A DNA stretch of 45,715 bases from the IMG/VR virus record IMGVR_UViG_3300036987_000023, positions 1-45,715 of that record, one strand, 5' to 3'. Origin of the DNA: a virus. Its lineage: Duplodnaviria > Caudoviricetes. The translations under genes were made by a program, and so were the position numbers. Below are positions 1 to 45,642 of the stretch, piece by piece. The notes below the pieces were generated by a model. That model worked only from the letters and a program-made list of their open reading frames with translations, did no database searches and was not told the DNA's origin. How positions within the stretch are numbered: position 1 is the stretch's first letter; the number at the start of each line of letters is the position of its first letter.

Positions 1-107
1 TGGACAGAAGAATAATCCTTTTCCTTACCTGCCTTCTAATTCTCCCGATAACTGCATCGGCCAGGATGAACATGCTCGTGTCATGTGCTGGTGGGCAAGG
101 GGCGGCT
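1..107 (+). repeat. Left anchor, identical to 42650..42756
   Basis: tggacagaag...ggggcggct matches base for base for 107 nt, then diverges (gga vs tgt). Confidence 0.97.
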
Positions 108-632
108 GGATGTGACCCGGCAACTCAGTATGTGGGGGATAAAACTGATTATAGCGATGAGGTTGCGGCGGATGTATCAGATATATTTTATTGCTATATC
201 AGGTCTCCTACTTGCACTGGAACATTATCTTACGCTTACTACGAAGGAAGGTCAGGGGCGTCTCCATCAAATGCGAAGGTTCTTGCATACAGTTGTCCAT
301 CGGGGGACACATGCGATGGGTCTGTAGGGCCATCGGCTAATGCAGCACTGATGGCAACAGCCACAATTATATTACCTGAATCTTCTGCAATTACAAAAAG
401 TTCAGCAGAAGCAAGTGGTTCCGACACATCTGTAGCTACAACTGAAAAAATATGGATTTGCGCTGTAGCGAGTGGAGCAACAGCCCGGATGGTAAGAAGA
501 AATACTGGAGGGTCAAATAATCAGTATTCACTTACTATCGCTGGTGGTTATGCGTCTCCTCCTGCTACGCTGCCTGGTGGATTTACTCAGACAGCAGGTC
601 GAGATCAAGGCGTTTATTTTGAGATCAAATAG
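1..632 (+). CDS. Signal-peptide protein, allele A (ATG lies 1 nt before the window)
   Basis: Same N-terminus as 42649..43260 (MDRRIILFLTCLLILPITASARMNMLVSCAGGQGAA), followed by a different Ser/Thr/Gly/Cys-rich body. Confidence 0.85.
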   Translation, partial: DRRIILFLTCLLILPITASARMNMLVSCAGGQGAAGCDPATQYVGDKTDYSDEVAADVSDIFYCYIRSPTCTGTLSYAYYEGRSGASPSNAKVLAYSCPSGDTCDGSVGPSANAALMATATIILPESSAITKSSAEASGSDTSVATTEKIWICAVASGATARMVRRNTGGSNNQYSLTIAGGYASPPATLPGGFTQTAGRDQGVYFEIK

Positions 633-641
633 GGGCATTAG

Positions 642-3041
642 ATGAAAAAGTATCTTGTATTTTTAGTATTATTGATAGTGATGGTTTTCCCTGTATCTGT
701 ATCTGCCGCTGGGTATTGTGGTGCATGGGGGATCAGCGGGACTAATCCATGGACGGTAACGTCTGATGCCGGTGGTACACCCAGTGCCGCACATACAGAC
801 GTACAAGCCTGTATTAGCAATGCGACAGTAACCGCCGGAAGCACCCTGAACATAACATACGCAGGTGGAGTTACATGGCCCGGATATGCTACATACATAC
901 CTGCCGCGAAACCGTTGTCTTTGATCGGCCCCGGCGCGTCAGTTTTAACAATAACAGCAACCGGCAACTGGGTTATAGAAACCGGAGCGCATACAGGCGC
1001 GGGTGGTGCGGCAGGGACAAGGGTCAGCGGCTTTAAATTCTTAAGTGCTCTAGATCAAAAACGCCAGATGATTATGTTTCGCGGAAAGAATAACCGCGTC
1101 GATCATTGCGTTTACGAGAGCATAATATCCACCAGCACGACAGGTACGCCGAATTTTGTCGGATTCTGGGGCGGGACTGGTGTGTCCGCGTCTGGCGTTG
1201 CGGATAATAATATTGTAATTAACGGCGGCATAACACAGGGCGGTCTTGGCGACTATGCTACCCAGCGAAATGTTTGGGCAGCGGATATCGTGCTAGGTGA
1301 TGAAAATCAGGTTTTCGTTGAAGATAATTATTTTTATTCGTCAACCGGAACCAGTGTAAAACAGGTATTGGATGCAACCAATGCGTCACGGAGTACCTAC
1401 AGGTACAATACTATTTATAACGGTTGGATTAATGTACACAGCATCCAGGATTCCCAATCGCGTGGTGTGCGGTCATCAGAAATATATGGCAACAAATCTC
1501 ACATATCGACCACCAATGAAGGTTACGGGCCGCTTGCTGGTTCCGGACTGATTTATGGAAATGATTTTGTATCTGCAACATATAATTCCAGTATTTCGTT
1601 CGGTAATAACAGGAGTGAGTGGGGGGACGCGGACGATTTCGGCTCTGCGCATAGATGCAACGGCGCATCTTTCTGGGATGGGAATACAGCGATTAACAAT
1701 GGGACAGGGACTCACACAGGCACAACATCATCGACCGTCCTAACAGATAGCACTAAATCGTGGACCACTAACGCCCTCATAGGCATGACCATAACGAATG
1801 AAACAAAGGGCGGCTTGACCGGCACACTGGCAGGGGCGGCTTGTATTATTACAGCGAATACCAGCACCAGCGCAACATGCTCAGCAGGTTTTTTTGATTC
1901 CTCAACGCTAGAAAACACTAATGAATATAAAATATCTGCTGGCTATCCCTGCCGTGATCAGATTGGCATGGGTACTGATGTGTCAACGTGGACAAGTTTT
2001 CCAACAGCTACAACTAAAGCTCCGAGCCAAGTATCTGCACCGGTATATGTATGGCAAAACTTTAATGATGCCTCATCCCTTATTACTGCGGGGGTGTTCT
2101 CTTCGACTTTAGGTGGAGTAATATTAGGTGGGCGTGATTTTCAAAATCATAACAATACGAATTGCGCTGCTGGTGGGGCAGCGTGTACGGCTGGCGTTGG
2201 ATGCGGAACCCTTGCCAATCGTCCAAGCTCTTGCACAACTGGCGTTGGATACTGGGCCACCAACCAAACTAATTGTGCCGATATTACGGGATATGCAGGA
2301 GCTTCGATTTGTGATTATGTTACAAACCCAAGCTGTACACCTGACAGGTCTGCATCAACTACCTATGCTGGCACACTTTACAAATGCACCTCAACCGATA
2401 CATGGGAAGAATACTTTACACCTTACGATTACCCACATCCCCTGCGTGGAGAAGTAGCCCCGCCCGATAGCACAGCCCCGCAAGTGTCATCCGTATCAGT
2501 CAACCCCGCAGGAACCTCCCTGACAATCACTTGCGATGAACCTGTAAACTTTGGCGCGGGTGGTAACGGCGGGTTTGTTCTTGACCCATCGGGCGCGGAC
2601 GTAACCTTGACCTACGCATCCGGCGCAGGAACGGCAAGCCTTGTCTATACTATCTCGCGGCCAATTTTACAGAGCGAAAACCTCACACTGGCCTACACGC
2701 AGCCCACGGCAGGGGTTGAGGACGTATCAGCATTAACCAATGATCTGGCTTCATTCACGGGTCGCAGCGTCGGAAATGGGTCAACATATACCGGCGAAGC
2801 AACGATCAGAACGCTGACACTGACCACAGGCACAGGGGTTTCGGGAATGTCAAACTACCCCACAGGAACCACGTTTGCGGATGGAACGGCGGTAACAGTG
2901 AGCGCCGCCTGCCATAACGGATGGCGAAACGCTGTTTACTCAGGTGACTGCAACGCGACAACGGGGAACGTAGCAATGTCTGCCAATCGGTCATGCTCGG
3001 CTACCTGCTCACAGACTCCCGTTTTAAATTGGGTGCAATAA
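642..3041 (+). CDS. Secreted-type Cys-rich adhesin/receptor-binding-like protein, allele A: beta-helix-like body, SwmB-like domain, InlB B-repeat-like C-terminus
   Basis: Signal peptide MKKYLVFLVLLIVMVFPVSVSA; beta-helix-like strands (RVSGFKF, RVDHCVY, VFVEDNYF, YRYNTIYN); DSTAPQVSSVSV...LTLAYTQP; TFADGTAVTVSA...YSGDC...MSANRSCSAT. Domain names are by-eye recognition. Confidence 0.75.
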   Translation: MKKYLVFLVLLIVMVFPVSVSAAGYCGAWGISGTNPWTVTSDAGGTPSAAHTDVQACISNATVTAGSTLNITYAGGVTWPGYATYIPAAKPLSLIGPGASVLTITATGNWVIETGAHTGAGGAAGTRVSGFKFLSALDQKRQMIMFRGKNNRVDHCVYESIISTSTTGTPNFVGFWGGTGVSASGVADNNIVINGGITQGGLGDYATQRNVWAADIVLGDENQVFVEDNYFYSSTGTSVKQVLDATNASRSTYRYNTIYNGWINVHSIQDSQSRGVRSSEIYGNKSHISTTNEGYGPLAGSGLIYGNDFVSATYNSSISFGNNRSEWGDADDFGSAHRCNGASFWDGNTAINNGTGTHTGTTSSTVLTDSTKSWTTNALIGMTITNETKGGLTGTLAGAACIITANTSTSATCSAGFFDSSTLENTNEYKISAGYPCRDQIGMGTDVSTWTSFPTATTKAPSQVSAPVYVWQNFNDASSLITAGVFSSTLGGVILGGRDFQNHNNTNCAAGGAACTAGVGCGTLANRPSSCTTGVGYWATNQTNCADITGYAGASICDYVTNPSCTPDRSASTTYAGTLYKCTSTDTWEEYFTPYDYPHPLRGEVAPPDSTAPQVSSVSVNPAGTSLTITCDEPVNFGAGGNGGFVLDPSGADVTLTYASGAGTASLVYTISRPILQSENLTLAYTQPTAGVEDVSALTNDLASFTGRSVGNGSTYTGEATIRTLTLTTGTGVSGMSNYPTGTTFADGTAVTVSAACHNGWRNAVYSGDCNATTGNVAMSANRSCSATCSQTPVLNWVQ

Positions 3042-3344: not shown

Positions 3345-3417
3345 GAAAATGGTCGATAAAAACGGTAAACCTATCACATGGAAATGGATTGTAGGGGTTC
3401 TACTCACGTTGCTTTTG
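3319..3417 (+). repeat. Right anchor, identical to 45617..45715
   Basis: acgggaactata...gttgcttttg identical for 99 nt up to the contig end. Confidence 0.97.
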
Positions 3418-3582
3418 ATTGTTGGTAGTTTTGCCGCAGCATCGGTCAAGGAACGCGCAGATACAGCACACCTCAGGATTGACGTTATGCAGGAAAAGAA
3501 GGTCGATAAAGATCGTTACGAGTGCGACATGAACAGGATTGAAAAGAAGCTGGATACCCTGATTGAACGGACGAGCAAATGA
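3349..3582 (+). CDS. Membrane protein of the lysis module (holin/antiholin-like)
   Basis: One TM helix (WIVGVLLTLLLIVGSFAAA) plus a coiled-coil tail; directly precedes the endolysin. Confidence 0.65.
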   Translation: MVDKNGKPITWKWIVGVLLTLLLIVGSFAAASVKERADTAHLRIDVMQEKKVDKDRYECDMNRIEKKLDTLIERTSK

Positions 3583-3884
3583 GCGAACTATTTGACAAAA
3601 GAGCTAAGTTTACCGGATACGTTGCCGATCTCATTGACTACATGATAAGCGAAGGATATACCCCCCTGCTTGGCAAGGACGGCCTCAAGCACATGAAAAA
3701 CAGCCTGCACTATGAAGGACTCGCTGTAGACATTGACCTCTTTAAAGACGGCAAATACCTCGTTACAACCGAAGATCATAAGCAGTTTGGTGAGTTTTGG
3801 GAAGGACTCGACGATGACTGTGCATGGGGTGGTAGATTCAAGGACGGCAATCACTACAGCATTAAGTATGGTGGGCGAAAATGA
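3579..3884 (+). CDS. Endolysin, M15 family zinc peptidase
   Basis: SLHYEGLAVD (SxHxxGxAxD) and WGGRFKDGNHYS motifs. Confidence 0.9.
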   Translation: MSELFDKRAKFTGYVADLIDYMISEGYTPLLGKDGLKHMKNSLHYEGLAVDIDLFKDGKYLVTTEDHKQFGEFWEGLDDDCAWGGRFKDGNHYSIKYGGRK

Positions 3885-4300
3885 CAATCATCCCGACAAC
3901 GATCAAACTTGAACTGATACCAGGAAGCAGGGGCAGATATTGGCGTTTATTGGAAACGTGGGGGTTCTACTCCGGCACATTAAAAAGCGGTGTGCTTATC
4001 CCGAAGGGCTTTGTTTGGGATCTGGAATCGACTTCGCCATACAGAGGCCAGAACCCGATGGCTGGAACTGCGCACGACTATCTCTGCCGAAAGGACTCTG
4101 ACCCTATCGTAAGCAAGGAAATGGCGGCAAAAGTCTATCACGAAATTGCCTGTCACGAAGATGGTAACTGGACGGACAGAAACCTGCCACAAAGGATATG
4201 GGACTGGATAACAAACAAGGTCAAGCGCAACGTGGTCATTGTTGCGCCTGGGTATTTCCACAAACATGAAGTCATGGCACATTATGAGGATTTTAAATGA
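3881..4300 (+). CDS. DUF1353-like protein
   Basis: IPKGFVWDLES...AHDYLC pattern; typical neighbour of lysis genes. Confidence 0.75.
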   Translation: MTIIPTTIKLELIPGSRGRYWRLLETWGFYSGTLKSGVLIPKGFVWDLESTSPYRGQNPMAGTAHDYLCRKDSDPIVSKEMAAKVYHEIACHEDGNWTDRNLPQRIWDWITNKVKRNVVIVAPGYFHKHEVMAHYEDFK

Positions 4301-4473
4301 AAAACTGGAAAACAACTATACTTGGAATCTTAGGCGCAATCGCGGTGGTAGTTTACCCGATCATCGCAAACGGTGAGTTCAAATGGGAATCAGTCGGCAT
4401 TGCCGCATTCGTGGCCGCAATGGGCTACCTTGCGAAAGACCACGACGTTACCGGCGGGACGAAGGCTCAGTAA
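4297..4473 (+). CDS. 58-aa two-TM holin-like protein (not in the ORF track)
   Basis: Manual translation MKNWKTTILGILGAIAVVVYPIIANGEFKWESVGIAAFVAAMGYLAKDHDVTGGTKAQ; ATGA overlap with the previous stop. Confidence 0.8.
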   Translation: MKNWKTTILGILGAIAVVVYPIIANGEFKWESVGIAAFVAAMGYLAKDHDVTGGTKAQ

Positions 4474-6892: not shown

Positions 6893-6925
6893 AGTAATCT
6901 CCTTAATTTATTTGTTTAAAAAAAA

Positions 6926-7205: not shown

Positions 7206-7235
7206 TTTAAATCCTTTCCGCGCAGCAAATAGATC

Positions 7236-7290: not shown

Positions 7291-7512
7291 TTTCACCAAA
7301 TTTGAAAATCTGGCATCCTTAAAAAAATCATCAACCGTTTTACACGGGAAAAACCAACGCGGCTTGCCACGCTTTTTTAAATAAGTGAACGAAACGCCCG
7401 GCAAGGCTCCGTCATATTCGGGATGTCCTGGAATTAAAACAGCATTGATTTTCACGGAAGGCGTTTTTTCATAGCCATTATATAATAATTTATCTCCGGC
7501 ATTTATTTCCAT
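7285..7512 (-). CDS. Hypothetical cassette protein
   Basis: 75 aa, AAAGGA RBS, stop overlaps GTTA of site 4. Confidence 0.8.
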   Translation of the reverse strand: MEINAGDKLLYNGYEKTPSVKINAVLIPGHPEYDGALPGVSFTYLKKRGKPRWFFPCKTVDDFFKDARFSNLVKI

Positions 7513-7535
7513 TTACTTAGTCCTTTCAAAACAAA

Positions 7536-7600
7536 ATATAACCTGTCGTTCCAGTCGATCACTACGCTTCGCTCCGTTCCGCCTGAGCTTGGCGTTAGCA
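7536..7600 (+). repeat. attC-like site 5
   Basis: ATATAAC-ctgtc-GTTCCAGT...CCTGAGC-ttggc-GTTAGCA. Confidence 0.88.
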
Positions 7601-7915
7601 CCAATACAGTGCAACTTTGCACCTATCATCAAGTTCTTTGACATAAGCACCTGTTGGCCCTGTGATTCCAACCGTCTTTAAATCCTTCGCCAGAACAAAG
7701 ACAACTCGTTCACCGTATGGATTTTCTATGGTCTTTCCATAGTGCGTATCTTCATATTTATCGTCTCGGCTTACGTACGAGGTAAAATTATCATCAACTT
7801 CCATAGCCGGAAGTGCTCTTATGGCATCGTGAAGGTCGTAATCTCTATTAACCTGCAAAACAGTGTGAGAGAAAAAACTTGCATCGTAAGGTAATAATAT
7901 TAAATCAACTCCCAT
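7595..7915 (-). CDS. Hypothetical cassette protein (MGVDLILLP...VALYWC)
   Basis: AAGGAG RBS, stop overlaps GTTA of site 5. Confidence 0.85.
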   Translation of the reverse strand: MGVDLILLPYDASFFSHTVLQVNRDYDLHDAIRALPAMEVDDNFTSYVSRDDKYEDTHYGKTIENPYGERVVFVLAKDLKTVGITGPTGAYVKELDDRCKVALYWC

Positions 7916-7941
7916 TTTACTTTCTCCTTTTTAAAAAAAAG

Positions 7942-8002
7942 TGCTAACAAATCGCTGCACCCGATCGTCGCTGCGCTCCTCCGCGTGAGCTTTTCGTTAC
8001 TT
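7942..8002 (+). repeat. attC-like site 6
   Basis: TGCTAAC-aaatc-GCTGCACC...CGTGAGC-ttttc-GTTACTT. Confidence 0.88.
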
Positions 8003-21693: not shown

Positions 21694-23709
21694 ATGAAAA
21701 AGGTATTAAGTGTTTTACTTGGTATTTTGCTTTTTGCGACGATGGCCACGGCTGCGGGACCGTATCCAAACAAAGAGTTTGGCCAAAGCCTGGGGAAAGA
21801 CGGACGCTCATACAATGAGCTTTATCTGAAAAACAGCATTCTTTTTGAGGGCGCCACTTCTGACGCTTATGAAGGCAAGCTGCTGATCACCGATCCGACT
21901 GCCGATAGGACTTGGACGATGCCGGATAAGTCGGGAACTGTGGCCATGACGAGCGACGTCAGCACGGCGGCGACTGCGTGGAATGCGATCACTGATCCCG
22001 CGGCAAATAAAACAATCACATTTGGAACATACACAAGCACGTTGACCGGCGCTTCGACCGCTGCGGACCAATGGACGTTTACGAATACTGGCGCGATGGG
22101 CGACATTTCGGTTGTTAAAATCTCTCAGTCCGGAAATGCAACGGACGGCACGGTGCTGGAAGTTGTCAGTGCTGACGCCCAGGCGGATGCCCTGGTGGTC
22201 ACAGCAGCAGGCGCGAACGCATTAACCGTTACAGGCGCAGGCGCAGTCAATTTAATTGGCGCGACGGGCATTGTGGGTGATGTGGCTGTTACTGGCGGAC
22301 TGACCTCAACCGGCGTAACCGCATTCGGAAATGGGACAGCAACAGTAGCAATCAATTCTTCTGTTTGGGATATTGCGACGACAGGCGCAGCAAGCGGATT
22401 TACCACGTTCGATCTTACCGGCGACATTACGATGGCCAACGGCAAGGGCGTTAAAAGCTCCACCACGAATGGTCAGACGGTTGGTCTTTACGCATACGAT
22501 GTGGATGGCGCCGCTTATGTCAATTCCATCCTGATCACCAACGGCAATACGGTCGGTGTCAAAGTCGGAAGTGGCGTGGAAACCGTGGCTGTTGATTCTA
22601 CCACCTGGGACGTATCGACCGCAGGCGCTTTCTCTGGCGTAACGGGTATGACCTTTGCGGTGGGTGAGGCGGCGACTGTGACACTGGCTTCCAACGGCGC
22701 GGCGGATGATTTAACGATTTCTGTAACCGGAGCCAACGATGCTTCTTTGATTTTGACTTCCGCCGGAACAGGTGAAGATGCAATCATTGTCAGTTCGACG
22801 GCTGGCGGCATTGACGTGGACGCAGCAGCTGCAAAGGATATTAATATAGCAGGCGGCCAGGTGGCATTGGTTAGTAAAGACAACGCCGCGAGTGCGATCA
22901 GCTTAACCGCAAACATCGGGGCGACCGAAACCATCGTCGTCACAAATTCGCAAGGCACGAGCGAATCAGCCATTACGCTGTTGTCCACGGCGGGCGGTGT
23001 CAACGTTGATGCGGCTGCGGCCAAAGACCTCGATCTTGCAGGCGGTCAGGTGAAGCTTGTATCGAAAGACGATGCGGCAAGCGCTATTTCGCTCACAACA
23101 AACATTGGAACATCAGAGACAATCGTTATTACCAATACTCAAGGAACATCTGAAGGCGCGATCACTTTAGTTTCTACAGCTGGTGGAGTGGATATCGACG
23201 CAGCGGCAGCGAAAAACATTGACATTGCCGGTGGTCAAGTCCTCATCAGTTCCAAAGATAACACTGCTTCGGCAATTGCATTGACGGCAAACATAGGAAC
23301 CTCTGAAACTATTGTGGTGACAAATACTCAGGGCACGGGAGCGGGTGCAATTACGTTGACAGCGACGGCGGGAGGCGTGACCGCAAACGTGGCAGCAGGG
23401 AAGGCAATTACCCTGAACGGCACGGTAAATCATAAAGTTGGGTCAAATATCGCGTCACCGGCGGGTGGAGAGTTGACTCTTGGAGAAGGACAATATTTTT
23501 TAATCACCGGCACAAACAACATCACAAGTATTGCCGCGGCATCCACTACGGCAGGGCGGTTAGTTATCCTCCGGTTTGATGGTGTTTTGACATTCACTGA
23601 CGGAAATAACTTGAAAATAGCCGGTAATTTTGTGACTTCGGATGAAGACACGATTACCTTAATCAGCGACGGAACGAACTGGTATGAAGTATCTCGTTCC
23701 GCAAATTAA
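21694..23709 (+). CDS. Fibre-like protein with signal peptide and 63-aa repeats
   Basis: MKKVLSVLLGILLFATMATA; FEGATSDAYE..LLITDPTADRTWTMPDKSGTVA fibre motif; C-terminal DTITLISDGTNWYEVSR. Confidence 0.75.
   Translation: MKKVLSVLLGILLFATMATAAGPYPNKEFGQSLGKDGRSYNELYLKNSILFEGATSDAYEGKLLITDPTADRTWTMPDKSGTVAMTSDVSTAATAWNAITDPAANKTITFGTYTSTLTGASTAADQWTFTNTGAMGDISVVKISQSGNATDGTVLEVVSADAQADALVVTAAGANALTVTGAGAVNLIGATGIVGDVAVTGGLTSTGVTAFGNGTATVAINSSVWDIATTGAASGFTTFDLTGDITMANGKGVKSSTTNGQTVGLYAYDVDGAAYVNSILITNGNTVGVKVGSGVETVAVDSTTWDVSTAGAFSGVTGMTFAVGEAATVTLASNGAADDLTISVTGANDASLILTSAGTGEDAIIVSSTAGGIDVDAAAAKDINIAGGQVALVSKDNAASAISLTANIGATETIVVTNSQGTSESAITLLSTAGGVNVDAAAAKDLDLAGGQVKLVSKDDAASAISLTTNIGTSETIVITNTQGTSEGAITLVSTAGGVDIDAAAAKNIDIAGGQVLISSKDNTASAIALTANIGTSETIVVTNTQGTGAGAITLTATAGGVTANVAAGKAITLNGTVNHKVGSNIASPAGGELTLGEGQYFLITGTNNITSIAAASTTAGRLVILRFDGVLTFTDGNNLKIAGNFVTSDEDTITLISDGTNWYEVSRSAN
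22780..23420 (+). repeat. Three full and one partial 189-nt (63-aa) coding repeats
   Basis: Units start at 22780, 22969, 23158 and 23347; protein conserved, codons diverged. Confidence 0.9.
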
Positions 23710-28351: not shown

Positions 28352-28951
28352 ATGGCAACACAGGTCAGCATTTGCAATCTGGCGCTTGGCAAGTTTGGCG
28401 GCGTAACCATTACGGACATTAACGAGAACACCCGGGAATCAAGGGCGTGTAAATCGTTTTGGGACCACGTTCGGGATAAGCTGATCAAAGATTATCCGTG
28501 GCGATTTGCCTTGAAGCGGTTCGAGATTGGCGCCGCTCTGTCCGAAGCTCCTGCTTTTCCCGAAGAGCATTATTATTATCCACTGCCGACAGATTGCCTG
28601 CGCGTATTTGAGTTGTGGGAAAGCGGCCAAATGTCTGACGCTCAATGGTCGATTGAAGGCAATAAGCTTTTAACAGCCATTGAAGATCCACAAATCCGGT
28701 ACATCGCCAGGATAACGGATGTTTCTCAATATGGTCCGGAATTTGTCGAATGCTTTGCCTGTGCGCTGGCCGCTGAGATAGGGCCGAAGTTGACAGATAA
28801 TCCGAAGCTCAGGGTAGATTTCTTAAACGAATTATCCATCAATATCAGCAAAGCCGAAAAGTTAAACGCGATCGAGGGCAATCCGCCGAAGCACAAAGAC
28901 GAGCAGGGCTTAGATGCTGGGAATTTTAGCTGGCAGACCACAGGACGTTAA
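28352..28951 (+). CDS. Tail tubular protein A (adaptor)
   Basis: SICNLAL..G...YPWRFALKR...YPLPTDCLRV...LAAEI. Confidence 0.88.
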   Translation: MATQVSICNLALGKFGGVTITDINENTRESRACKSFWDHVRDKLIKDYPWRFALKRFEIGAALSEAPAFPEEHYYYPLPTDCLRVFELWESGQMSDAQWSIEGNKLLTAIEDPQIRYIARITDVSQYGPEFVECFACALAAEIGPKLTDNPKLRVDFLNELSINISKAEKLNAIEGNPPKHKDEQGLDAGNFSWQTTGR

Positions 28952-31692
28952 TGGGCGCATTTACATCACAAACCAATTTCACCGGGGGCGTTTGGTCGCC
29001 TCTCATGGCTGGCCGGACGGATATCGACAAGTATAAAAACGCCTGCCGCCAGATGGTGAATATAATTCCTTACCCTCACGGGCCTGCAACGATGCGTCCC
29101 GGTTTTAGGTATATCGCCAGCACGAAATATTCCGATAAAAAGTCTATCCTGATCCCCTTCGTATCGTCTGACACACAAGCCTATGTTGTTGAATTTGGTG
29201 ACTACTACGCGAGATTTTACACAGATGGCGCGCAGATATCAATCACACCGACGACGTGGGCCAAGGGCGTATATTACGGCGTGGGAGTAATAGTAACAGG
29301 TGGCGCAACGGTCTATAGGTGCATTGTTGGTCATACAAGCGACGACGCTGCGCTTGATTTACTGGCTGGATATTGGGTGGTGACAGACAATTACATTTAC
29401 GAAATACCAACACCTTACGGCGAAGATGATCTTGAGAAAATAAAATATTGCCAGTCAATCGACGTCGCCTATGTTTTCCATCCGGATTATGCGATCCGGA
29501 AACTCTTACACATGGGGGAGACCTCATGGGATATTATTGAAGCAAACTTCCGCCCGCCGCCGCTTGTTGAGGCAGTAACAATTCCTGACACAACAGTATA
29601 TCCGGAAGCAACAACAGGAACATCAGTTAAGTTCATTGCTGGATCCGCTGTTTTTCAGACCGGAGACGTTAACCGGATTATACAATCCGAGCGCTCGCGG
29701 GCAATTATCAAAGCATTTATAAATACTCAAGAGGTAACGTGTGAAATAATCGATGATTTTTTAAGCACATTGCCAATCGCTTCCGGAAGCTGGAAAATAA
29801 CCGGATCACCAAAGGCTATCGTTATCCCGTCAATATCAGAACCGGCCAATGCCTCAGTGACGATCACGGTTGACGACACTGACGAAAGCGGAGTTGCGTG
29901 GGTAAATCTGATTGTTTTTTCTATCCCGGAAGGCGGATTTGTCCCAATTCCGACTATCGAAATCAATTTCGTTGAGTCATCTGTTCCTGATGAACATTAT
30001 GTTAAATTGACCGCATCATGCAAGCCTCCAACGGAGCCAGCGCAAGTTAAATACTTTGATATGCTTTTAACAAAAGGCACGGTCGGCACGCTGGGAAATT
30101 GGGGGTGGGCATGGGGCGACAATGACGGATTGGGTCAAAACACGCTTTATGTCAAAATTGGCGGCGCAAACCCTAATGTTTTGACGGCGGAAAACCTGAT
30201 GGTTTATTCTATGACTAACGGGGAACCTTCTGAAGTCTTTCGTGAGACAGACGAGGGAAAATACCTTGCGATTTATGGCGGGTTGGTCCGGATAACAACC
30301 TTTGTTGATAGCCAGACGATTGTCGGTGATATTATTCAAGAAATGCTTTCTGTGTCGCTTGATAACTCCGGAGACATTGAACCCACATCCGCATGGACGC
30401 TCTATACTGAATTATGGAATGCCACGAATGGATATCCGTCTTGTGGGACTTTTTATGAAGATCGCCTTTTTACCGCAGGTGTTAATAGCTTCCCGGAAAA
30501 CATTAGAGCTTCACAAGTTGGCGATTATGAAAACTTTACCCCAGGCATAACAGACGCTGATTCAATTGATGTGTCGTTGTCGGGACGGTCTTTAAAATCC
30601 GTCAGATGGATTGAACCGAGAGAATACCTTATCGTCGGGACGGATAGCAGCGAGTGGAGATTGGGGCCTGAAGACACAGGGCAGGCGATGACGCCGTTGA
30701 ACATTGTCGCAAAGCAGCAAACGACTTTTGGCTGCGCTGACATTCCGCCGATATCGATCGGGAATTGCACTCTTTTTATTCAAAAGGCTTTACGAAAAAT
30801 ACGGGAGTTCACCAATAATCCCACTACAATCAATATTGAGTATGTCGCACCGGACCTCACTTTATTGGCAGAACACATCACCGAAAGGGGAATCAAAGGG
30901 ATTTGTTACCAGCAAGAACCTTTTTCGATTGTGTGGGCGTGGCTGGAAGACGGTAATATAATCGGCATGACGTATCTGAGGGATCAGGAAGTTATCGCGT
31001 GGCATAAACACCCCACAAACGGCGAGTGCGAAAGCATGTGTGTCATCCCTGGGACGGATCAGGACGAAGTATGGGCTATCATCAAAAGGACAATCAACGG
31101 AAATGCTGTTCGATATATTGAAAGACTTGAACCTGTCTTCAACGACACGCCGATGCTTCATGCGGAAAACAAAGGCGAAAACGCTTTCTTTGTGGATTCC
31201 GGCGTAACTTATAACGGCGATCCGGCCACAGTTATTTCAGGCGGGGAACACCTTGAGGGAGAACCAGTTGTTGTTGTGGCTGACGGGGCTTATGTTGGCG
31301 TTCATATCGTAACAAGCGGGGCCGTGACCCTAAAAACAGCCGCTTCGGTTGTGCATTACGGCCTTCCCTATGAAGCCACATTGGAGCCAATGCTCCCCGA
31401 ATTATCTTTACGAGACGGAACGGCACAAGCAAGAATGAAAAAAACAACCAGCTTGAGGCTCCGATTGTTAAACACAGGCGCCTTTAAGTGCGGCCGGGAC
31501 GAATTGCACCTTGAAGACGTGATTGTCCGGGCAACTGATGATCCGATGGGAACAGCGAAAAAGCTTTATAACGGGGATAAGGTCGTTTCCTTTGAGGGGG
31601 CGATTGATCGGGATTCCCGAATTGTGATCGTGCAGGATAAGCCTCTTCCGCTCACGGTTGTGGCGATTTATCCGGAGGTCAGTCTCGTATGA
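28951..31692 (+). CDS. Tail tubular protein B (nozzle)
   Basis: QTNFTGGVWSP...GPATMRPG...GYPSCGTFYEDRL...DLTLLAEH...AWHKH...PLPLTVVAI. Confidence 0.9.
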   Translation: MGAFTSQTNFTGGVWSPLMAGRTDIDKYKNACRQMVNIIPYPHGPATMRPGFRYIASTKYSDKKSILIPFVSSDTQAYVVEFGDYYARFYTDGAQISITPTTWAKGVYYGVGVIVTGGATVYRCIVGHTSDDAALDLLAGYWVVTDNYIYEIPTPYGEDDLEKIKYCQSIDVAYVFHPDYAIRKLLHMGETSWDIIEANFRPPPLVEAVTIPDTTVYPEATTGTSVKFIAGSAVFQTGDVNRIIQSERSRAIIKAFINTQEVTCEIIDDFLSTLPIASGSWKITGSPKAIVIPSISEPANASVTITVDDTDESGVAWVNLIVFSIPEGGFVPIPTIEINFVESSVPDEHYVKLTASCKPPTEPAQVKYFDMLLTKGTVGTLGNWGWAWGDNDGLGQNTLYVKIGGANPNVLTAENLMVYSMTNGEPSEVFRETDEGKYLAIYGGLVRITTFVDSQTIVGDIIQEMLSVSLDNSGDIEPTSAWTLYTELWNATNGYPSCGTFYEDRLFTAGVNSFPENIRASQVGDYENFTPGITDADSIDVSLSGRSLKSVRWIEPREYLIVGTDSSEWRLGPEDTGQAMTPLNIVAKQQTTFGCADIPPISIGNCTLFIQKALRKIREFTNNPTTINIEYVAPDLTLLAEHITERGIKGICYQQEPFSIVWAWLEDGNIIGMTYLRDQEVIAWHKHPTNGECESMCVIPGTDQDEVWAIIKRTINGNAVRYIERLEPVFNDTPMLHAENKGENAFFVDSGVTYNGDPATVISGGEHLEGEPVVVVADGAYVGVHIVTSGAVTLKTAASVVHYGLPYEATLEPMLPELSLRDGTAQARMKKTTSLRLRLLNTGAFKCGRDELHLEDVIVRATDDPMGTAKKLYNGDKVVSFEGAIDRDSRIVIVQDKPLPLTVVAIYPEVSLV

Positions 31693-38742: not shown

Positions 38743-39534
38743 ATGCCCGTAGCAAACGAAACCAATAGCATCAGTTATGCCGGGGATGGAGTGACCGCCG
38801 AGTTTTACTTTACCGGGTCAAGCGGGTTTGAAATCTTTGAGGACGCTGATCTTTTGGTGATTGTTAAAAGCTCGCTGAATGTCGAGACTATTTTGTCGCT
38901 TAATTCCGATTACACCGTGACCGGCGCCGGGACCAGTTCCGGATATATCACCTTGCTTGATCCGACTGTTTGCCCTTCCGGATCTACGGTGTTTATCATC
39001 GGGAATATCGAGGCAACGCAAAACACGGAGTTTGTGGAAGGATCTGACTTTTCAGCGGCGGCCGTAAACCGCGCTCTTGATAAATTGACGCGGCTGATAA
39101 TTCAAGTTCAAAGGAAAGTTTCCCGGGCCGTTCTTCTTCCGGTGACTACGCCTTACGAAAACTTGACGCTTGCCGAGCCTTCCGTAGGAAAATATCCGCT
39201 CTGGAACGCTGGTCTTACCGGGCTTGAGAACGGCGACGGTAGCCCCGGAGGAACGGAAAACGATTTTATTTATATTTACAGCAAAACCATGACCGGAGAT
39301 GAAACCTTCTCTGCCCCGGGCAATCAACTGATGAGGGCGATTCTGGACGCGAACGGACTTGACCGGACATTTAACCCATTGGGGACCTTTGCGGCTGGCT
39401 TTGTAGTGGAAATATGGAACGTGGGGAATAACGCGATAACATTTGATTCGGCCGGGCTGGATGTTTCTGTGGCCGGCGGGCAGATCGGGCGGTTTATTTA
39501 TGCTGGTTCATGGTTTTTTGGACAATCTATTTAA
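38743..39534 (+). CDS. Short tail fibre anchor protein (T7 gp17 N-terminal-like domain)
   Basis: SYAGDGVTAEF.F...DL.V...L.LNSDYTVTG...RALDKLT.LIIQ; only 263 aa, no signal peptide. Confidence 0.82.
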   Translation: MPVANETNSISYAGDGVTAEFYFTGSSGFEIFEDADLLVIVKSSLNVETILSLNSDYTVTGAGTSSGYITLLDPTVCPSGSTVFIIGNIEATQNTEFVEGSDFSAAAVNRALDKLTRLIIQVQRKVSRAVLLPVTTPYENLTLAEPSVGKYPLWNAGLTGLENGDGSPGGTENDFIYIYSKTMTGDETFSAPGNQLMRAILDANGLDRTFNPLGTFAAGFVVEIWNVGNNAITFDSAGLDVSVAGGQIGRFIYAGSWFFGQSI

Positions 39535-39543: not shown

Positions 39544-41496
39544 ATGAAAAGAATATCGTTTATCATCGGCTTGATGCTGCTTTTAACAACACAGGCTTTT
39601 GCGATTGAGTATAAAGCAAATCCGGCTTGCGCTGATCAGGCGGCGACCACGTGCGTGAGATCCATTAAAAACCTTGTTACCGCCATTGGCACGACGAAAA
39701 CCGCGACAATCGTTCTGGATCACACAAGTTCAGGATTAACGACGACATACACACTCGGGCAGGCGCTGGACACATCCACATATACAAATATCACGCTTAA
39801 ACCTGCTTGGGGCGCGAGGCTCAATAGAGGTACCTACGCCTTTAACTGGGGAGGCAAGCTGGACGTTCTGCCCGGGCAGCAATGGTTAGAGGGTACGGGT
39901 GCCGTGACTTTAAGCGGTTCCGTTCCTGTTCTTTATCCTGAATGGTGGGGCGGGAAAGGCGACGCTTCAACGGATAATTACGCAGCGATTCAACAGGCGT
40001 TGAACAACCTGATAGATGGACGAAAGGTCGTCATCAATGACGGAACGTGGAATTTCGGGACGGGTCTTGTCTGGACAGGTTACAGCAACACCACCTTGGA
40101 ATGTAATGGCCTGCTTTCCTACACAGGGGCCACAGGAACAGCCTTGACGATAGGTGGAGCAACCGAATACGGCAATTATAAGGGGAACATTCGTCTTCGT
40201 CATGGGAAGACAACAGCAGCAACGTGGTCGGATGGGGTAGTCGGTGTCAATACGATCAACATCTTTGAGTCCTCGCTGACTTTTGATAATATTGGCAGGT
40301 ACGGTACGGGAACTTATGGCTTTGCTGTTGGCCTCAAGGTGTCAGGCACAAATGCCAACGGAAACGCTTATAACTCATATTATCTCAATCGTTTCGTAAG
40401 CAATCAAATCGGAGTTTTAATTGAGAACAACACAAGCGGATGGGCAACGCAGAATGAATTTTACGGCGGCAGATTTGATAATATAGGGACGCACACCGAC
40501 GCAGAGTGGGCTGCATCGTATCATATCTATGTTACAACTGGAAATAATAACAACACCTTTTACTCTCCGTCCTTTGAGAATGATGACTATTACTGTTGGT
40601 TTTACAACAATAGTTCGGACGTAAGTTTAATCTTTCCGCGACTTGAGGGAAGTCCTGACTATAAAGTAATTAACGATGTGCTTGGATATAAGTTTACGCT
40701 GATGCCGGGATATATGACAGGCGTTCACGCAAACGCGAACAACGAAATTGTTGACCTGAACGGTACGATGAAGTTTGTGGACAGGTATTCTTCTTCGTTT
40801 GGGTACGTCAATAAATTTACGAGCATTGCGGCTGATACGGTAACTGCACTGACTTATAGGCGCGGAGATATTCTGCATAAATACGTCCCTGTTTATGGAA
40901 CGTGGGCTTTAAAAGTATGCACACAAAGCGGGACGTACTCAGATGCTACGGATTCAACAGGCGATACGGACGGCTCAACAGCAGTCATTACAGGACTGAC
41001 AGACACCAGTGATTTCTATTTAGGGCAATACGTTACCGTGTCCGCTGGTTTTCCGTCGGCAACCCTGCCATATCAAATCATTGCCATAACAAGCACAACG
41101 ATAACCTTAGACACGAACTCGAACTCAGCGCAAAGCGATGTAACAGTGGCAACGCCTGATCCTCTATGGATGAATATAGCCAGAACGCAAAGCGATGACA
41201 TGGTTCAATCTGTGACTTACGGCGCAACTGTGACGCCTGATTTATCTTTGGGGCATGTTGTGAGCGTCGGGGTGCTGACAGGTGACGTAAAAATAGAAAA
41301 CCCGACCAAAACCTTCGCCGGGCAAAGGTTTTCGGTTCGTCTGGTAGCTGACGGAACAGGAAGAAACATTACTTATGGAACAAATTTCAAAGCTGCAACA
41401 GCGGCGCTAACGGCGAGCAAGAGAATCATTTTAGATTTTATGGTGGTAGCAACAAATCAAATCGTGCAGATCAATACACCGATTGAGTGTGACTAG
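39544..41496 (+). CDS. Tailspike-like beta-helix protein with signal peptide
   Basis: MKRISFIIGLMLLLTTQAFA; YPEWWGGKGDASTDNYAAIQQALN pectate-lyase-like tailspike motif; Asn/Gly-rich coils. Confidence 0.8.
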   Translation: MKRISFIIGLMLLLTTQAFAIEYKANPACADQAATTCVRSIKNLVTAIGTTKTATIVLDHTSSGLTTTYTLGQALDTSTYTNITLKPAWGARLNRGTYAFNWGGKLDVLPGQQWLEGTGAVTLSGSVPVLYPEWWGGKGDASTDNYAAIQQALNNLIDGRKVVINDGTWNFGTGLVWTGYSNTTLECNGLLSYTGATGTALTIGGATEYGNYKGNIRLRHGKTTAATWSDGVVGVNTINIFESSLTFDNIGRYGTGTYGFAVGLKVSGTNANGNAYNSYYLNRFVSNQIGVLIENNTSGWATQNEFYGGRFDNIGTHTDAEWAASYHIYVTTGNNNNTFYSPSFENDDYYCWFYNNSSDVSLIFPRLEGSPDYKVINDVLGYKFTLMPGYMTGVHANANNEIVDLNGTMKFVDRYSSSFGYVNKFTSIAADTVTALTYRRGDILHKYVPVYGTWALKVCTQSGTYSDATDSTGDTDGSTAVITGLTDTSDFYLGQYVTVSAGFPSATLPYQIIAITSTTITLDTNSNSAQSDVTVATPDPLWMNIARTQSDDMVQSVTYGATVTPDLSLGHVVSVGVLTGDVKIENPTKTFAGQRFSVRLVADGTGRNITYGTNFKAATAALTASKRIILDFMVVATNQIVQINTPIECD

Positions 41497-41505
41497 GAGG
41501 GCAAC

Positions 41506-41964
41506 ATGAAAAGAATAGTTTTAGCGATTAGTTTTGTTTTACTGGCCTGTCAAATTGTGTGGGCGGCGGGGTCTTGTATTCCGACGCAAACGGAGTCTGT
41601 AAATATCAACGGAAAGATCACGCGAAAATACATCGAACTGACATGCACGGGTGATGGATCTATCGCGGCATACAATTTCAGCCCGTCAACTTACGGCGTC
41701 AAAGGGTGGTATCTTTACAGCATCACGACAAATCCAGGGACGGCCGCCCCTACTGCTGATTACGACATTACGCTGATGGTCAACGGGGAAGATATAGCAG
41801 GAGGGCTTTTAGCAGACCGAAGCGCGACGGCAACGCAGACGGTGTTAATCGCTCCGACTACTTTGGGGTATCACATGGCAGGCGATACGATTGCGATTAC
41901 ATTTGCAAACCAGACGGCGAACCCATCGACGATTTCCATCAAGCTTAGATTTAGCGAAAATTAA
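41506..41964 (+). CDS. Signal-peptide beta-rich protein
   Basis: MKRIVLAISFVLLACQIVWA; TNPGTAAPTADYDITL. Confidence 0.8.
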   Translation: MKRIVLAISFVLLACQIVWAAGSCIPTQTESVNINGKITRKYIELTCTGDGSIAAYNFSPSTYGVKGWYLYSITTNPGTAAPTADYDITLMVNGEDIAGGLLADRSATATQTVLIAPTTLGYHMAGDTIAITFANQTANPSTISIKLRFSEN

Positions 41965-41974
41965 GGGGGCAACC

Positions 41975-42664
41975 ATGAAAAAATTTATTTACGCAATCGC
42001 TTTTTTGCTCGTTGCCTCGACCGCGTGGGCGATTCCACCCATGCCCGGCGGGTCCGGTGACATGACAACCGCTGATTATGTTGAGGACGGCGTGATCAAA
42101 GATTCCAAGCTGCCGACGGATTTGATGAAAAAAGCGGCCGGCACGCTGACAACCGGACAGACGACATGCACGGACGCAGAGGGTAAGCTGGTGTCCTGCG
42201 GCGCTCCGGTGACTGGGTTTGTGGATGTTGCCGATAACTCTGTTCTTGCTAAAAGCGGGACTACGGTTGTGGCGGTATCGACACAGAACATCAAGACCAC
42301 AGGTACTATACAAGGCGCAACAAGGGCCGTCCTTGAGAGCACTGCGACTACATATAATATTGACGCTGCTGATGCCTACGGGGTTTTATTCATCAACACG
42401 AACGCGGGAACGAAAACCTTTGTCCTTCCTTCTGCTGTAGCGGGAATGACTGTCTGTGTGAGAAACGGTCAGGGAGTCAATCAGATTTTACGCCTTGATG
42501 CTGCTGCGGATGATTACATCGTCATGTCGACTGGCACAAGAACGAGCGCTGCGTCTGAATACTACGGCGCGACGGCAAGCCCCAAAAATCAGGTCTGTGT
42601 CGTTGCTGCTGACGCGACGGATTGGTATGTCACAGGCGAGGTGGGAACATGGACAGAAGAATAA
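41975..42664 (+). CDS. Signal-peptide protein with fibre-tip-like C-terminus
   Basis: MKKFIYAIAFLLVASTAWA; TFVLPSAVAGM...DWYVTGEVGTW. Start moved from 41891 to the RBS-preceded ATG. Confidence 0.8.
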   Translation: MKKFIYAIAFLLVASTAWAIPPMPGGSGDMTTADYVEDGVIKDSKLPTDLMKKAAGTLTTGQTTCTDAEGKLVSCGAPVTGFVDVADNSVLAKSGTTVVAVSTQNIKTTGTIQGATRAVLESTATTYNIDAADAYGVLFINTNAGTKTFVLPSAVAGMTVCVRNGQGVNQILRLDAAADDYIVMSTGTRTSAASEYYGATASPKNQVCVVAADATDWYVTGEVGTWTEE

Positions 42665-43260
42665 TCCTTTTCCTTACCTGCCTTCTAATTCTCCCGATAA
42701 CTGCATCGGCCAGGATGAACATGCTCGTGTCATGTGCTGGTGGGCAAGGGGCGGCTTGTGTAGAAGGGAACCCGAACAGTCAGACTTCGGAATCAGATTA
42801 CTGGCTTGTAGGTAGCGCAAGTACGAATGTTTATGTCAACTCATCCTATGTGGCTGCGGGAACTGGCACGTACACCGTAAAAACGCTTTATGTCAAATTG
42901 CGGAAGATTGGAACGCCGAATTACACGATGACTTTTGCCTTGTGTACCTCCGACGGTGCTACTCCACCGCAGCCGTCGTCCTGCACGGATATAGGTTCGA
43001 TCAGCACAGGAGATGTATCTGCCGACGCCTACGCCAGTTATAAACTCAGTTATCCAACGGGCTACTCACAGACCAATGGTACGCGGTATCACATCCGTGT
43101 CTCGACAAGCGGATACGGGTCGGGGTCTGATTATATCCGTTGGGCTGGTGATCCAACATTTGCAACGGCTGGCTCTTATGCCTCTTCTGATGGGTCAACG
43201 TGGACGGCAAAAGACGCGACTTTCCAGCACAGCTTTGTTTTAAAGAATTGCGTGGAGTAA
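42649..43260 (+). CDS. Signal-peptide protein, allele B
   Basis: MDRRIILFLTCLLILPITASA; beta-sandwich-like body ending SSDGSTWT...FVL. Confidence 0.85.
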   Translation: MDRRIILFLTCLLILPITASARMNMLVSCAGGQGAACVEGNPNSQTSESDYWLVGSASTNVYVNSSYVAAGTGTYTVKTLYVKLRKIGTPNYTMTFALCTSDGATPPQPSSCTDIGSISTGDVSADAYASYKLSYPTGYSQTNGTRYHIRVSTSGYGSGSDYIRWAGDPTFATAGSYASSDGSTWTAKDATFQHSFVLKNCVE

Positions 43261-43263
43261 CCA

Positions 43264-45336
43264 ATGAAAAAAATACTAGCCTTTATTTTGCTCTTTATCT
43301 TTTGCCCAGTGGTGGCATGGGCTGCCTGTACAAACAACGGTGATGGCACGTTTACCACAGGCGGGAACGAATCATCTGATGTTATGGACTGCATCAACCA
43401 CCCATCGCTTGTCGCTGGCAATACAATCAACGTTATAGCGGGGGATGAGGCAGCTACATGGGCCGCTGGGTCTGTTGTTGTTCCTTCAAATAAGCCGTTA
43501 AAGATCATGGGCCCTGGGAGAGATAACTTAACGATTATTCTTGGTGGCCATTATCCACTACAAATATCAACCGACGGTGCGACGCCCTATATCGGAACGG
43601 TGGAATTACCTGCAACACGGATCAGCGGATTTACCTTTCAAACTCCTACAGACGCAGGGTACGCAGCTATTCTTGCACGGGGGAAGGGCTGGCGGATCGA
43701 CAATTGCCGGTATCATAGCGTCAGAACGACAAATGCACAAACTGCCGCGTTTGTAAATGCTTATTCAATGAATCAGACTGCTGCGTATGTTTCTGTTGGT
43801 CTAATTGATAATAACATTATCATTAACGGGCATATTGATTCCGGAATGCTGGGGTCATTTACAGCCCTCTCAACCCCTTGGGCAGACCCGCTTGATTTGG
43901 GGACAGCAAATTTCGTGTATGTGGAAGACAACGTTTTCAATGCCGTCAACACTAATTATCAAATGTATCTAGATTCAAACGGCAGTGGCAAATATGTGTC
44001 ACGCTACAACACATTCAATGATGGTCGTAACCTTGTTCACAGCCTTCAGGATGATTGGCGTGGTTCGATTAGCTGGGAAATGTATGGGAATATTTTTAAC
44101 GCACTTACGAGCAACGTGGGAATCGCTCCACTTGCTGGAACTGGGGTTGTGTTTAATAACTACATGGCTGGGAGTGGCGGGACGAAAAATATCTCATTTG
44201 ACACAAATCGTTTATGGAAGTCAGTTGGTAGCCATGCTTTGAAATGTGATGGAACATCTGATTACGACGGAAATACAACTGTTACGCCTTCTGCCCCTGG
44301 ATACCCATGCCGCGACCAATTAGGACGAAGCACTGATTCCTTTTTATGGACAAGCGCAAGCGGCTCGTATGCTACTGTTTTCCCCGCACCAGTTCAGGAA
44401 TTAAAGCCTGCCTATCTTTGGAGCAACTACAGCACAACCACTCCCATTGTTCCAAACGTGAGCGTAGAAGCCACAAATTACATTGTAAACAATCGGGATT
44501 ATTACATCCAAAACGCTTCTTTTAACGGGACATCGGGTGTCGGCTGTGGAACGCTTGGTAACCGTCCGGCAACCTGCACAACAGGCGTTGGTTATTGGGC
44601 AACCAATCAATCCTGTTCGGACATGACAGGTATGGTCGGTGCGAACCCATCTACACCAATCGCAGGAACGCTTTATAAATGCACATCAACCAACACGTGG
44701 ACAGAATACTACACACCCTACGATTACCCGCATCCACTGAGGGGTGAGGTAGCCCCGCCTGATAGCACACCTCCGACAGTATCATCGGTATCCGTAAATG
44801 CCGCTGGAACTTCACTGACAATCACTTTTGACGAATCCGTGAACTTCGGCGCAGGCGGAAATGGAGGTTTTGTTCTTGACCCATCGGGTGCGGACGTAAC
44901 CTTGACATACGCATCCGGCGCAGGAACGGCAAGCCTTGTCTATACGATTTCACGGCCAATTTTGCAGAGCGAAACCATGACGCTGGCTTACACACAACCC
45001 ACTGCAGGCGTTGAGGACGTATCAGCATTAACCAATGATCTGGCATCATTTACCGGAAGAAGCGTCGGAAACCAATCAACACAGACCGGCGAAGCGACGA
45101 TCAGGACTTTGACACTGACCACAGGCACAGGGGTTGCCGGAATGTCGAACTACCCCACAGGAATTACGTTTGCAGACGGGACAGCGGTAACGGTATCAGC
45201 CGCTTGTCATAACGGATGGCGCAATGCTGTTTACTCAGGCGATTGTAACGCCTCAACCGGCAACGTAACCATGTCAGCAAATCGGTCGTGTTCGGCTACC
45301 TGCTCGCAGACGCCAACTTTAAACTGGGTGCAATAA
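43264..45336 (+). CDS. Secreted-type Cys-rich adhesin/receptor-binding-like protein, allele B
   Basis: MKKILAFILLFIFCPVVAWA; collinear with 642..3041 and near-identical to it from GTLYKCTST to the end. Confidence 0.78.
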   Translation: MKKILAFILLFIFCPVVAWAACTNNGDGTFTTGGNESSDVMDCINHPSLVAGNTINVIAGDEAATWAAGSVVVPSNKPLKIMGPGRDNLTIILGGHYPLQISTDGATPYIGTVELPATRISGFTFQTPTDAGYAAILARGKGWRIDNCRYHSVRTTNAQTAAFVNAYSMNQTAAYVSVGLIDNNIIINGHIDSGMLGSFTALSTPWADPLDLGTANFVYVEDNVFNAVNTNYQMYLDSNGSGKYVSRYNTFNDGRNLVHSLQDDWRGSISWEMYGNIFNALTSNVGIAPLAGTGVVFNNYMAGSGGTKNISFDTNRLWKSVGSHALKCDGTSDYDGNTTVTPSAPGYPCRDQLGRSTDSFLWTSASGSYATVFPAPVQELKPAYLWSNYSTTTPIVPNVSVEATNYIVNNRDYYIQNASFNGTSGVGCGTLGNRPATCTTGVGYWATNQSCSDMTGMVGANPSTPIAGTLYKCTSTNTWTEYYTPYDYPHPLRGEVAPPDSTPPTVSSVSVNAAGTSLTITFDESVNFGAGGNGGFVLDPSGADVTLTYASGAGTASLVYTISRPILQSETMTLAYTQPTAGVEDVSALTNDLASFTGRSVGNQSTQTGEATIRTLTLTTGTGVAGMSNYPTGITFADGTAVTVSAACHNGWRNAVYSGDCNASTGNVTMSANRSCSATCSQTPTLNWVQ

Positions 45337-45533
45337 TGGAAGAACTCTTTGAGCTGATGACCGCGGTGAACGAGTGCCACATGGCAGTAATGGAATCAAT
45401 CATGCAATATCAGCGCGACGTAATGGGGCTGTACAATGATGGTAGTTTTGGAACACGAAGCAACACAGTGGAATCCAGCGAGGCCGCGAGAGACACCGTG
45501 GCCGGACTGTTCGATTGTTCCCCGCGTTTCTGA
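45336..45533 (+). CDS. Small hypothetical protein, allele B of 3041..3235
   Basis: MEELFELMTAV... Confidence 0.5.
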   Translation: MEELFELMTAVNECHMAVMESIMQYQRDVMGLYNDGSFGTRSNTVESSEAARDTVAGLFDCSPRF

Positions 45534-45642
45534 TGGGGGTGAGACAAGCTGGCTCTTGGAGACACTATCGGGGGAGGTCTGGCTCTCACGGCTGGACGTG
45601 ATTATTCGAGTAGGGGACGGGAACTATATTTTAATGAGGTGA
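45436..45642 (+). CDS. Small hypothetical protein, allele B of 3138..3344
   Basis: Same length and mostly the same sequence. Confidence 0.7.
   Translation: MMVVLEHEATQWNPARPRETPWPDCSIVPRVSDGGETSWLLETLSGEVWLSRLDVIIRVGDGNYILMR

Follow-up and report, generated by a model that had tools for sequence, protein, structure and literature searches.

Sec-type leaders on tail-appendage genes of a podovirus, and a possible periplasmic stage in the assembly of its virions

The 45,715-base virus record IMGVR_UViG_3300036987_000023 (the window, by which we mean the whole stretch of DNA analysed) carries a podovirus late operon in which terminase, portal (phrog_332), scaffold, capsid, tubular adaptor and nozzle genes are joined by three likely ejection genes, a 263-amino-acid fibre anchor and five consecutive tail-region genes (39544, 41506, 41975, 42649 and 43264, named by their first position; Table 1) whose products all begin with a Sec-type leader. 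These leader-bearing appendage genes are real and conserved, and no earlier description of leader-bearing virion parts in a tailed phage was found in the literature searched, supplements and most subscription papers having been outside its scope. The explanation that we consider probable, judging from the sequences, is that the leader proteins are exported late in infection, cleaved, folded in the periplasm and docked on the particle at lysis.

Each of the five open reading frames (ORFs) starts behind a purine-rich ribosome-binding site, and they encode 650, 152, 229, 203 and 690 amino acids, respectively; the ATG starts of 41975 and 42649 sit within longer frames called from TTG, and those TTG starts have no ribosome-binding site. 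Leaders were scored by a heuristic of our own (basic n-region, hydrophobic core, small-x-Ala site) and not by SignalP. All five have a net charge of +1 or +2, a 10-residue hydrophobic window with a mean Kyte-Doolittle value of 2.8-3.5, and a small-x-Ala site at residue 19-21 (AFA, VWA, AWA, ASA and AWA, in gene order from 39544 to 43264), or 19-22 when the allele-A gene at 642 is counted in. The heuristic passes 8 of the 64 called ORFs: the five genes, the allele-A gene at 642 described below, a sixth leader gene at 21694 and the holin-like gene at 3349, the last being the single pass among the 57 other called ORFs of the window. By chance, passes are far rarer (12/9446 internal pseudo-starts, 0.1-0.65% of composition shuffles, and 0.1-1.5% overall), and 4 of 261 ORFs pass in 17 related podovirus loci. 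An earlier sequence-only reading of this DNA had proposed Sec signal peptides on the five consecutive genes, and on this heuristic the proposal is borne out (basic residues, hydrophobic core, then AxA, VxA or xSA); the gene at 21694 is an addition to it. That reading had also ascribed leaders to two allele-A genes, of which the one at 642 passes and the one at position 1 has an incomplete ATG, whose first base falls just outside the contig. None of the five proteins has a later hydrophobic anchor (best 19-residue window <=1.55), and no leader protein has a lipoprotein Cys at +1 of the cut, a lipobox-like match at Cys29 of 42649 coming after an Arg and a good Ala cut site. The 42649 leader (42649-42711) has Arg-Arg before its hydrophobic residues and is loosely Tat-like, yet it is short and strongly hydrophobic.

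The anchor upstream, 38743, is short and leaderless, as had been read. Its residues 3-132 match domain D1 of the Carin-1 tailspike (PDB 28lx/8ck1, E 3.8e-7), and it also matches the epsilon15 tailspike (1-224); the Carin-1 tailspikes Dpo31 and Dpo36 and epsilon15 gp20 have this same N-terminal virion-docking domain, and Carin-1 has a homologous portal as well. In Carin-1 and epsilon15, as in protein P0001, anchor and enzyme form one leaderless chain, whereas in the window they are split and the enzyme half carries the leader: 39544 and P0001 share 53% identity over 97% of the length of 39544, and in P0001 the corresponding body is fused to a leaderless anchor, and P0004 joins a 39544-type body to a P22-type head-binding domain (PF09008). 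The AlphaFold 2 (AF2) model of 39544 is a beta-helix (mean predicted local distance difference test [pLDDT] 60.5), with a VIA Z of 17.2 to the GVE2 spike, Z of ~17 to spikes and polysaccharide lyases, and Z of 15.0 to Kp7 gp52, aligned from model residue 32; with the P0001 homology, it confirms that a tailspike-like beta-helix protein is among the leader genes. A Foldseek search of the PDB with this model returned nothing at E<=0.001 (tailspikes made up its weak best matches), nothing significant came from sequence searches of the PDB with alignments A1, A2 and A3, and NCBIfam gave one sub-cutoff match. The A1 profile also found no match in four records, two of which do contain partial homologues, and this negative therefore carries no weight. 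No receptor-binding domain is recognisable in the 263 residues of the anchor, and sequence searches with its C-terminal region (residues 150-263) retrieve only itself, no gp10-like branching domain being recognised by sequence. The anchor is likely to be a docking adaptor, with its C-terminal domain as the putative docking site; a complex prediction with three copies each of anchor residues 165-263 and 39544 residues 21-150, run without alignments, scored 0.00, which speaks neither for nor against such docking.

A short protein with an N-terminal docking domain and an anchorless beta-helix spike downstream, both recognised here, are what characterizes an adaptor-plus-spike system. The accessible parts of two reports describe such systems, namely StenM_174 gp43-gp46 (PMC10820202), a short-adaptor podovirus system with separate receptor-binding genes, and Kp7 gp51/gp52 (10.1101/2024.05.19.594906), a short adaptor with a separate spike; on that material StenM_174, the Xanthomonas phage Pagan and Kp7 are like the window in having a short anchor gene and then several anchorless receptor-binding genes. 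The window works like these systems but departs from their cytoplasmic, leaderless character: in StenM_174 and in Pagan, 6/6 tail genes checked are leaderless, whereas all five downstream genes of the window have leaders. The first 21 residues of StenM_174 gp44, which are poorly modelled, were considered as a leader and rejected.

Gain and loss of the leader at the predicted cut is seen directly in the family of 41506. The family search gave 431 relatives at E<=0.001; of the 150 matches listed, the 137 with 110-175 amino acids were kept, and among these and the query (138 proteins) 98 have a leader, which amounts to an added 18-29 residues. The leaderless homologues mostly start where the mature protein would (36/40 lie <=4 residues from the predicted cut, counted from printed offsets), often with Met-Ala-Gly. 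On these alignments the leader is a detachable unit, and the mature part is a complete unit that starts at the cut. Leaderless starts were checked in the DNA for G007 and for MetMV, the others being taken as called; in G007 a stop lies six codons upstream, so this copy is truly leaderless. (Loci from the metagenome scan served only as a pool for tip-domain and Cys counts, the nozzle tree, such DNA start checks, and the comparison of alleles and homologues.) Atlas clusters for 41506 are 88-100% viral, and in relatives the gene lies after the ejection genes, beside a capsid accessory gene or before the portal; we infer that its product may be an appendage base or adaptor. In MetMV, a record that names a Methanosarcina host, a leaderless weak homologue (L058:11980-12405, E 3e-3) directly follows a gene of 3002 amino acids.

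Related records (the G series, mostly fragments) carry leaders on virion-docking parts themselves. In G003 and G007, only one fibre gene separates the ejection genes from the lysis genes, and it encodes a leader plus an anchor; the G007 protein matches Carin-1 Dpo31 from residue 21, and domain D1 of Dpo31 is linked to the virion base in the accessible text of PMC13317679. Both anchors (L163 and L164) have a Cys in the first strand region that is missing in the leaderless anchors shown with them, and L018:9944 is a third leader-bearing anchor. In G010 and G011 the nozzle and tail-slot genes carry a leader, and in the G011 nozzle (L075:13621-16059) a 22-residue leader stands directly before the conserved nozzle N-terminal motif, as it does in G010. 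Script counts of leaders were 0/21 for portals, 0/19 for capsid proteins, 0/27 for adaptors, 0/32 for nozzles and 1/25 for anchors, which inspection by eye corrected to 3/25 anchors and 2/32 nozzles (the two nozzles being close kin); because two nozzles and two anchors had slipped through the script filters, the zeros in the remaining classes should not be taken as complete. In G007 the anchor carries a leader and the 41506 homologue does not, opposite to the arrangement in the window; this indicates that leader state is set gene by gene and is consistent with the late joining of parts that come from two compartments. G015 and G017 possess an anchor, and their slot is free of leader genes. In a nozzle tree (a quick method, with SH-aLRT support only) the window groups with G003, G007 and G008 (support 100) and with G010-G012 (98); the clustering of leader labels on this tree is not significant, 31 of 500 shuffles being as low.

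The genes beyond 41506 resemble fibres and adhesins. The C-terminal half of 41975 has 44 phmmer matches in the protein pool of the analysis (best E 5e-12), and a counterpart comes after the 41506 homologue in L002 and L003. In 43264 the SWM_repeat lies at 500-580 (Pfam, E 4.2e-6), and its beta-helix is pectate-lyase-like according to Atlas, where matches under 0.9 are leads only. The last two genes occur as two coexisting alleles, one at each end of the window. The unit genome is ~42.3 kb, and the ends repeat, first as 107 identical bases (1-107 equal 42650-42756), then divergently and then 86% alike; in run X1, from which the contig may derive, coverage stands at 21 as far as 42756 and at ~8 on allele B beyond, and a contig of run X3 runs on past 42756 with allele-A letters, so the population carries two cassettes, of which a single genome has one. 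The 42649 alleles share only their first 15 mature residues, Cys29 included, and identity between the 43264 alleles is 0.33-0.46 towards the N-terminus and 0.85-0.95 towards the C-terminus. The conserved ends would probably be attachment points and the remainder receptor-binding, and the two genes are likely to form a swappable host-range cassette. By eye, large tail-slot leader proteins (L170-L174 and 43264) often end in a short Thr/Gly-containing, strand-like tail, a possible docking strand.

The sixth leader protein, 21694, adjoins a GNAT gene on its other side from the portal. Of its 461 homologues, 120 were listed, and 71 of these (its own protein included) pass the heuristic; a leader gene occupies the same pre-portal slot in L022, L023, L029, L060, L062, L066, L067 and L070. 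At residues 603-671 it shares 68-70% identity with the C-terminal ends of anchored fibres from L031 and L032 that have no leader. From its position 21694 is possibly a head fibre; a single-sequence fold has a pLDDT of 43. Repeats are present in this family, as are exchangeable tip domains, and some of the homologues have a peptidase S74 domain at the end; no S74 domain was found in the proteins of the window.

Folding with disulfides in the periplasm had been suggested for the exported parts, and the cysteines speak for it in some of them. In 43264, allele B has 13 mature Cys, 12 of them aligned with a Cys of the divergent allele A. In the 41506 family, >=2 mature Cys occur in 46/98 leader-bearing and 6/40 leaderless members (Fisher p 4e-4, uncorrected for kinship), and the Cys29/Cys37 pair of 39544 is missing in its four leaderless homologues. 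The term Cys-rich, applied earlier to adhesin-like proteins among these genes, holds for 42649 and 43264 and not beyond these two, 21694 runs counter to the disulfide idea, and Cys are also present in the nozzle (12) and the capsid protein (5), both leaderless. Disulfides are likely to be a benefit for some parts and not a rule. Glycosylation sequons (N-X-S/T, D/E-X-N-X-S/T and D-S/T-x) are not enriched in the leader proteins.

The course that we infer for export, cleavage, disulfide formation, attachment and timing is as follows. The tailspike, the small base protein, the short fibre, the two variable adhesins and the pre-portal fibre would enter the periplasm via Sec, where during late infection their leaders would be cleaved and the appendages would fold, while the head, portal, adaptor, nozzle, ejection proteins and short anchor, which have no leader, would be made in the cytoplasm. 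Once the holin breaks the inner membrane, the appendages would dock on the DNA-filled particle via the cytoplasmic anchor and perhaps also at the head; in relatives the boundary between compartments would lie further in, at the anchor or the nozzle. The wider proposal, plausible but held more tentatively, is that this podovirus clade splits assembly across the inner membrane, with heads cytoplasmic and outer tail and fibres periplasmic, and that the boundary slides gene by gene (the nozzle in G010/G011, the anchor in G003/G007, only distal parts in the window) through gain or loss of a 20-residue leader, opening secreted, disulfide-bonded cellular folds to use as receptor-binding parts. The sequence-only reading had offered receptor-binding parts joined at lysis as one possibility; homologues that are virion fibres and spikes, and the leaders of kin on anchor and nozzle, speak for this, with export, cleavage and attachment standing as predictions.

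Several observations weigh against periplasmic completion. The anchor and nozzle of the window itself are leaderless, so the strongest argument rests on relatives (those 3/25 anchors and 2/32 nozzles). As called, none of the four full-length homologues of 39544 has a leader, so the 39544 leader is not shared by its nearest kin and looks lineage-specific. The cysteines fit unevenly: 30/98 leader-bearing 41506 homologues have no mature Cys, 21694 is Cys-free, and mature Cys counts are odd in both 42649 alleles (5 and 7) and in 43264 allele B (13). The closest relative by ejection protein (G021, 61%) has leader genes and no recognisable anchor. No cultured phage with such an arrangement was found; searches of cultured phages gave no full-length relatives of 21694, 39544 or 43264, and the weak leaderless MetMV match for 41506. 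For host and envelope type, a GTDB scan (37/64 parts) found 8 distant loci and gave no host assignment.

Known exported phage and fibre-like proteins provide partial precedents. The g3p and g8p proteins of filamentous phages are virion proteins with Sec leaders, and g3p has periplasmic disulfides; they are, however, membrane-anchored and added during extrusion, whereas the window proteins, which come from a head-tail phage, lack a membrane anchor after the leader. Signal-peptide and signal-arrest-release (SAR) endolysins (fOg44 Lys44, P1 Lyz) are late proteins of tailed phages exported by Sec before lysis, according to the accessible text of PMC6116005, but are lysis enzymes and not virion parts, and the endolysin-like gene of the window is leaderless. 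The MAT fibres of Bdellovibrio, in the accessible part of PMC10769870, are phage-fibre-like trimers behind a signal peptide, which implies that they mature after export and gives a precedent for such folds tolerating it; as described there, they are chromosomal cell-surface adhesins that share a domain of ~130 amino acids after the leader, and not virion parts.

An unlikely alternative, though the best placed of those we weighed, is that export does take place but the proteins never join the virion, serving instead as soluble depolymerases or decoys freed at lysis or as modifiers of the host surface (exclusion, adhesion), the last of which the sequence-only reading had also raised. It would suit 43264, which resembles a cellular secreted beta-helix/immunoglobulin-like protein and whose nearest Atlas clusters are mostly bacterial, and it would suit an anchor that stays leaderless in the window, to which binding of the leader proteins is a prediction. 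Secreted accessory genes do sit in phage tail operons (lambda lom and bor), and gp40 of Xanthomonas phage PBR31, tail-hydrolase-like and with a signal peptide, is read as a lysis aid in the accessible text of PMC10975493. Leaders nonetheless occur on the sole tail-slot anchor fibre of G003/G007 and on the nozzle of G010/G011, and leaders on the clade's virion-docking parts favour exported virion parts over host-surface proteins; the window anchor, moreover, has no recognisable receptor-binding domain of its own. Remodelling of the host surface is further weakened by features of the operon, none of which is that of a moron or lysogenic-conversion gene: no integrase matched among the 47 window ORFs scanned (small ORFs being only partly covered), no membrane anchor or lipoprotein Cys is present, promoter-like sites are at chance level (15 versus 13.1), as are terminator counts, late-operon intergenic gaps are -16 to 10 nt, and G+C content at third codon positions (GC3) is core-like (0.45-0.54 in the leader genes, 0.42-0.66 in other late genes).

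Less probable again is a leader that stops short of full export, acting as an inner-membrane tether or being bypassed by a second start that gives a cytoplasmic form, with assembly remaining cytoplasmic. In 42649 a Met does lie two residues past the predicted cut, the existence of leaderless orthologues means that the bodies can presumably fold in the cytoplasm, and a periplasmic nozzle would, to judge from T7 and P22 assembly, leave packaged heads unsealed. Yet the charge pattern is that of an N-terminus inside and a body outside (Sec topology), the small-x-Ala site is retained in unrelated leaders, Cys pairs are enriched alongside the leader, and the G011 nozzle has no in-frame start between its leader and the conserved N-terminal motif. 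A two-step exit, in which heads would already be in the periplasm when final lysis comes and would receive the rest of the tail there and not in the lysate, is very improbable: it would account for the leader-bearing nozzles of kin, would spare parts from dilution after the burst and could be fitted to the lack of a recognised spanin in the window, but no gene or structure indicates a transit step, an ordinary holin-like plus endolysin-like slot is present, and relatives have lipoprotein-like genes beside their lysis genes (by eye).

Table 1. Positions of the leader genes and associated features in the window
Positions	Strand	Feature	Basis
38743..39534	+	Leaderless short tail-fibre anchor; epsilon15/Carin-1/T7 gp17-type N-terminal domain plus ~95-amino-acid C-terminal domain	phrog_1640, E 5.5e-27
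39544..41496	+	Leader (1-20) plus anchorless beta-helix tailspike	Homology and AF2 model
41506..41964	+	Leader (1-20) plus small virus-specific beta-sandwich, cupin-like by Atlas (template-modelling score ~0.5)	Family search, Atlas
41975..42664	+	Leader (1-19) plus short fibre-like protein	C-terminal half is the tip domain common to 21694-family fibres
42649..43260	+	Leader (1-21) plus variable adhesin-like domain, allele B	Allele comparison
43264..45336	+	Leader (1-20) plus beta-helix, immunoglobulin-like SWM repeat and Cys-containing tail, allele B	Pfam, Atlas
1..3041 (1-632 and 642-3041)	+	Allele A of the 42649 and 43264 genes	End repeat, run depth, X3 contig
21694..23709	+	Sixth leader gene; 671-amino-acid Cys-free repetitive beta fibre directly before the portal	Homologues, position
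28951..31692	+	Nozzle (phrog_376), leaderless in the window, leader-bearing in G010 and G011	Homology
3349..4473	+	Lysis slot: holin-like gene with one transmembrane segment, leaderless M15-like endolysin, DUF1353, hydrophobic 58-amino-acid gene	Pfam (M15 and DUF1353 matches below curated cut-offs)
45436..45642	+	Leaderless 68-amino-acid gene, also behind a run of leader genes in G021	43% identity, E 6.6e-13 to L259:19278

Other features of the window and its relatives are set down here for completeness. Two overlapping ORFs in different frames follow the cassette (45336-45642; 2993-3344), of which only the 68-amino-acid one has a homologue elsewhere. In G021 (L259-L260) the capsid module is of another kind, three leader-like genes separate the head genes from the tail genes, and the ejection gene is followed by a lipoprotein-like gene on the other strand. 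Among small minus-strand early genes at 4973-7999 lie short dispersed repeats (32-64 nt; families D4, D6 and D9), in the manner of cassette boundaries, and at 39487, near the end of the anchor gene, one X1 contig departs from the window with 97 unrelated letters. No RNA runs are among the runs listed as holding window sequence. Homologues of 21694 occur in a Smithella and a Sedimentisphaerales metagenome-assembled genome, which is no host evidence for the window.

The usual view is that tailed phages complete their assembly in the cytoplasm, ahead of lysis. Natural pairs of leader-bearing and leaderless orthologues (the 41506 family, the anchor, the nozzle, and 39544 versus P0001) make the idea of a periplasmic stage testable without the host. 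If it is true, signal-peptide genes of uncultured phages, usually filed as host-modifying or auxiliary, may often encode virion parts, and the periplasmic stage would be an extra assembly step through which secreted, disulfide-bonded folds would be open to host-range evolution.

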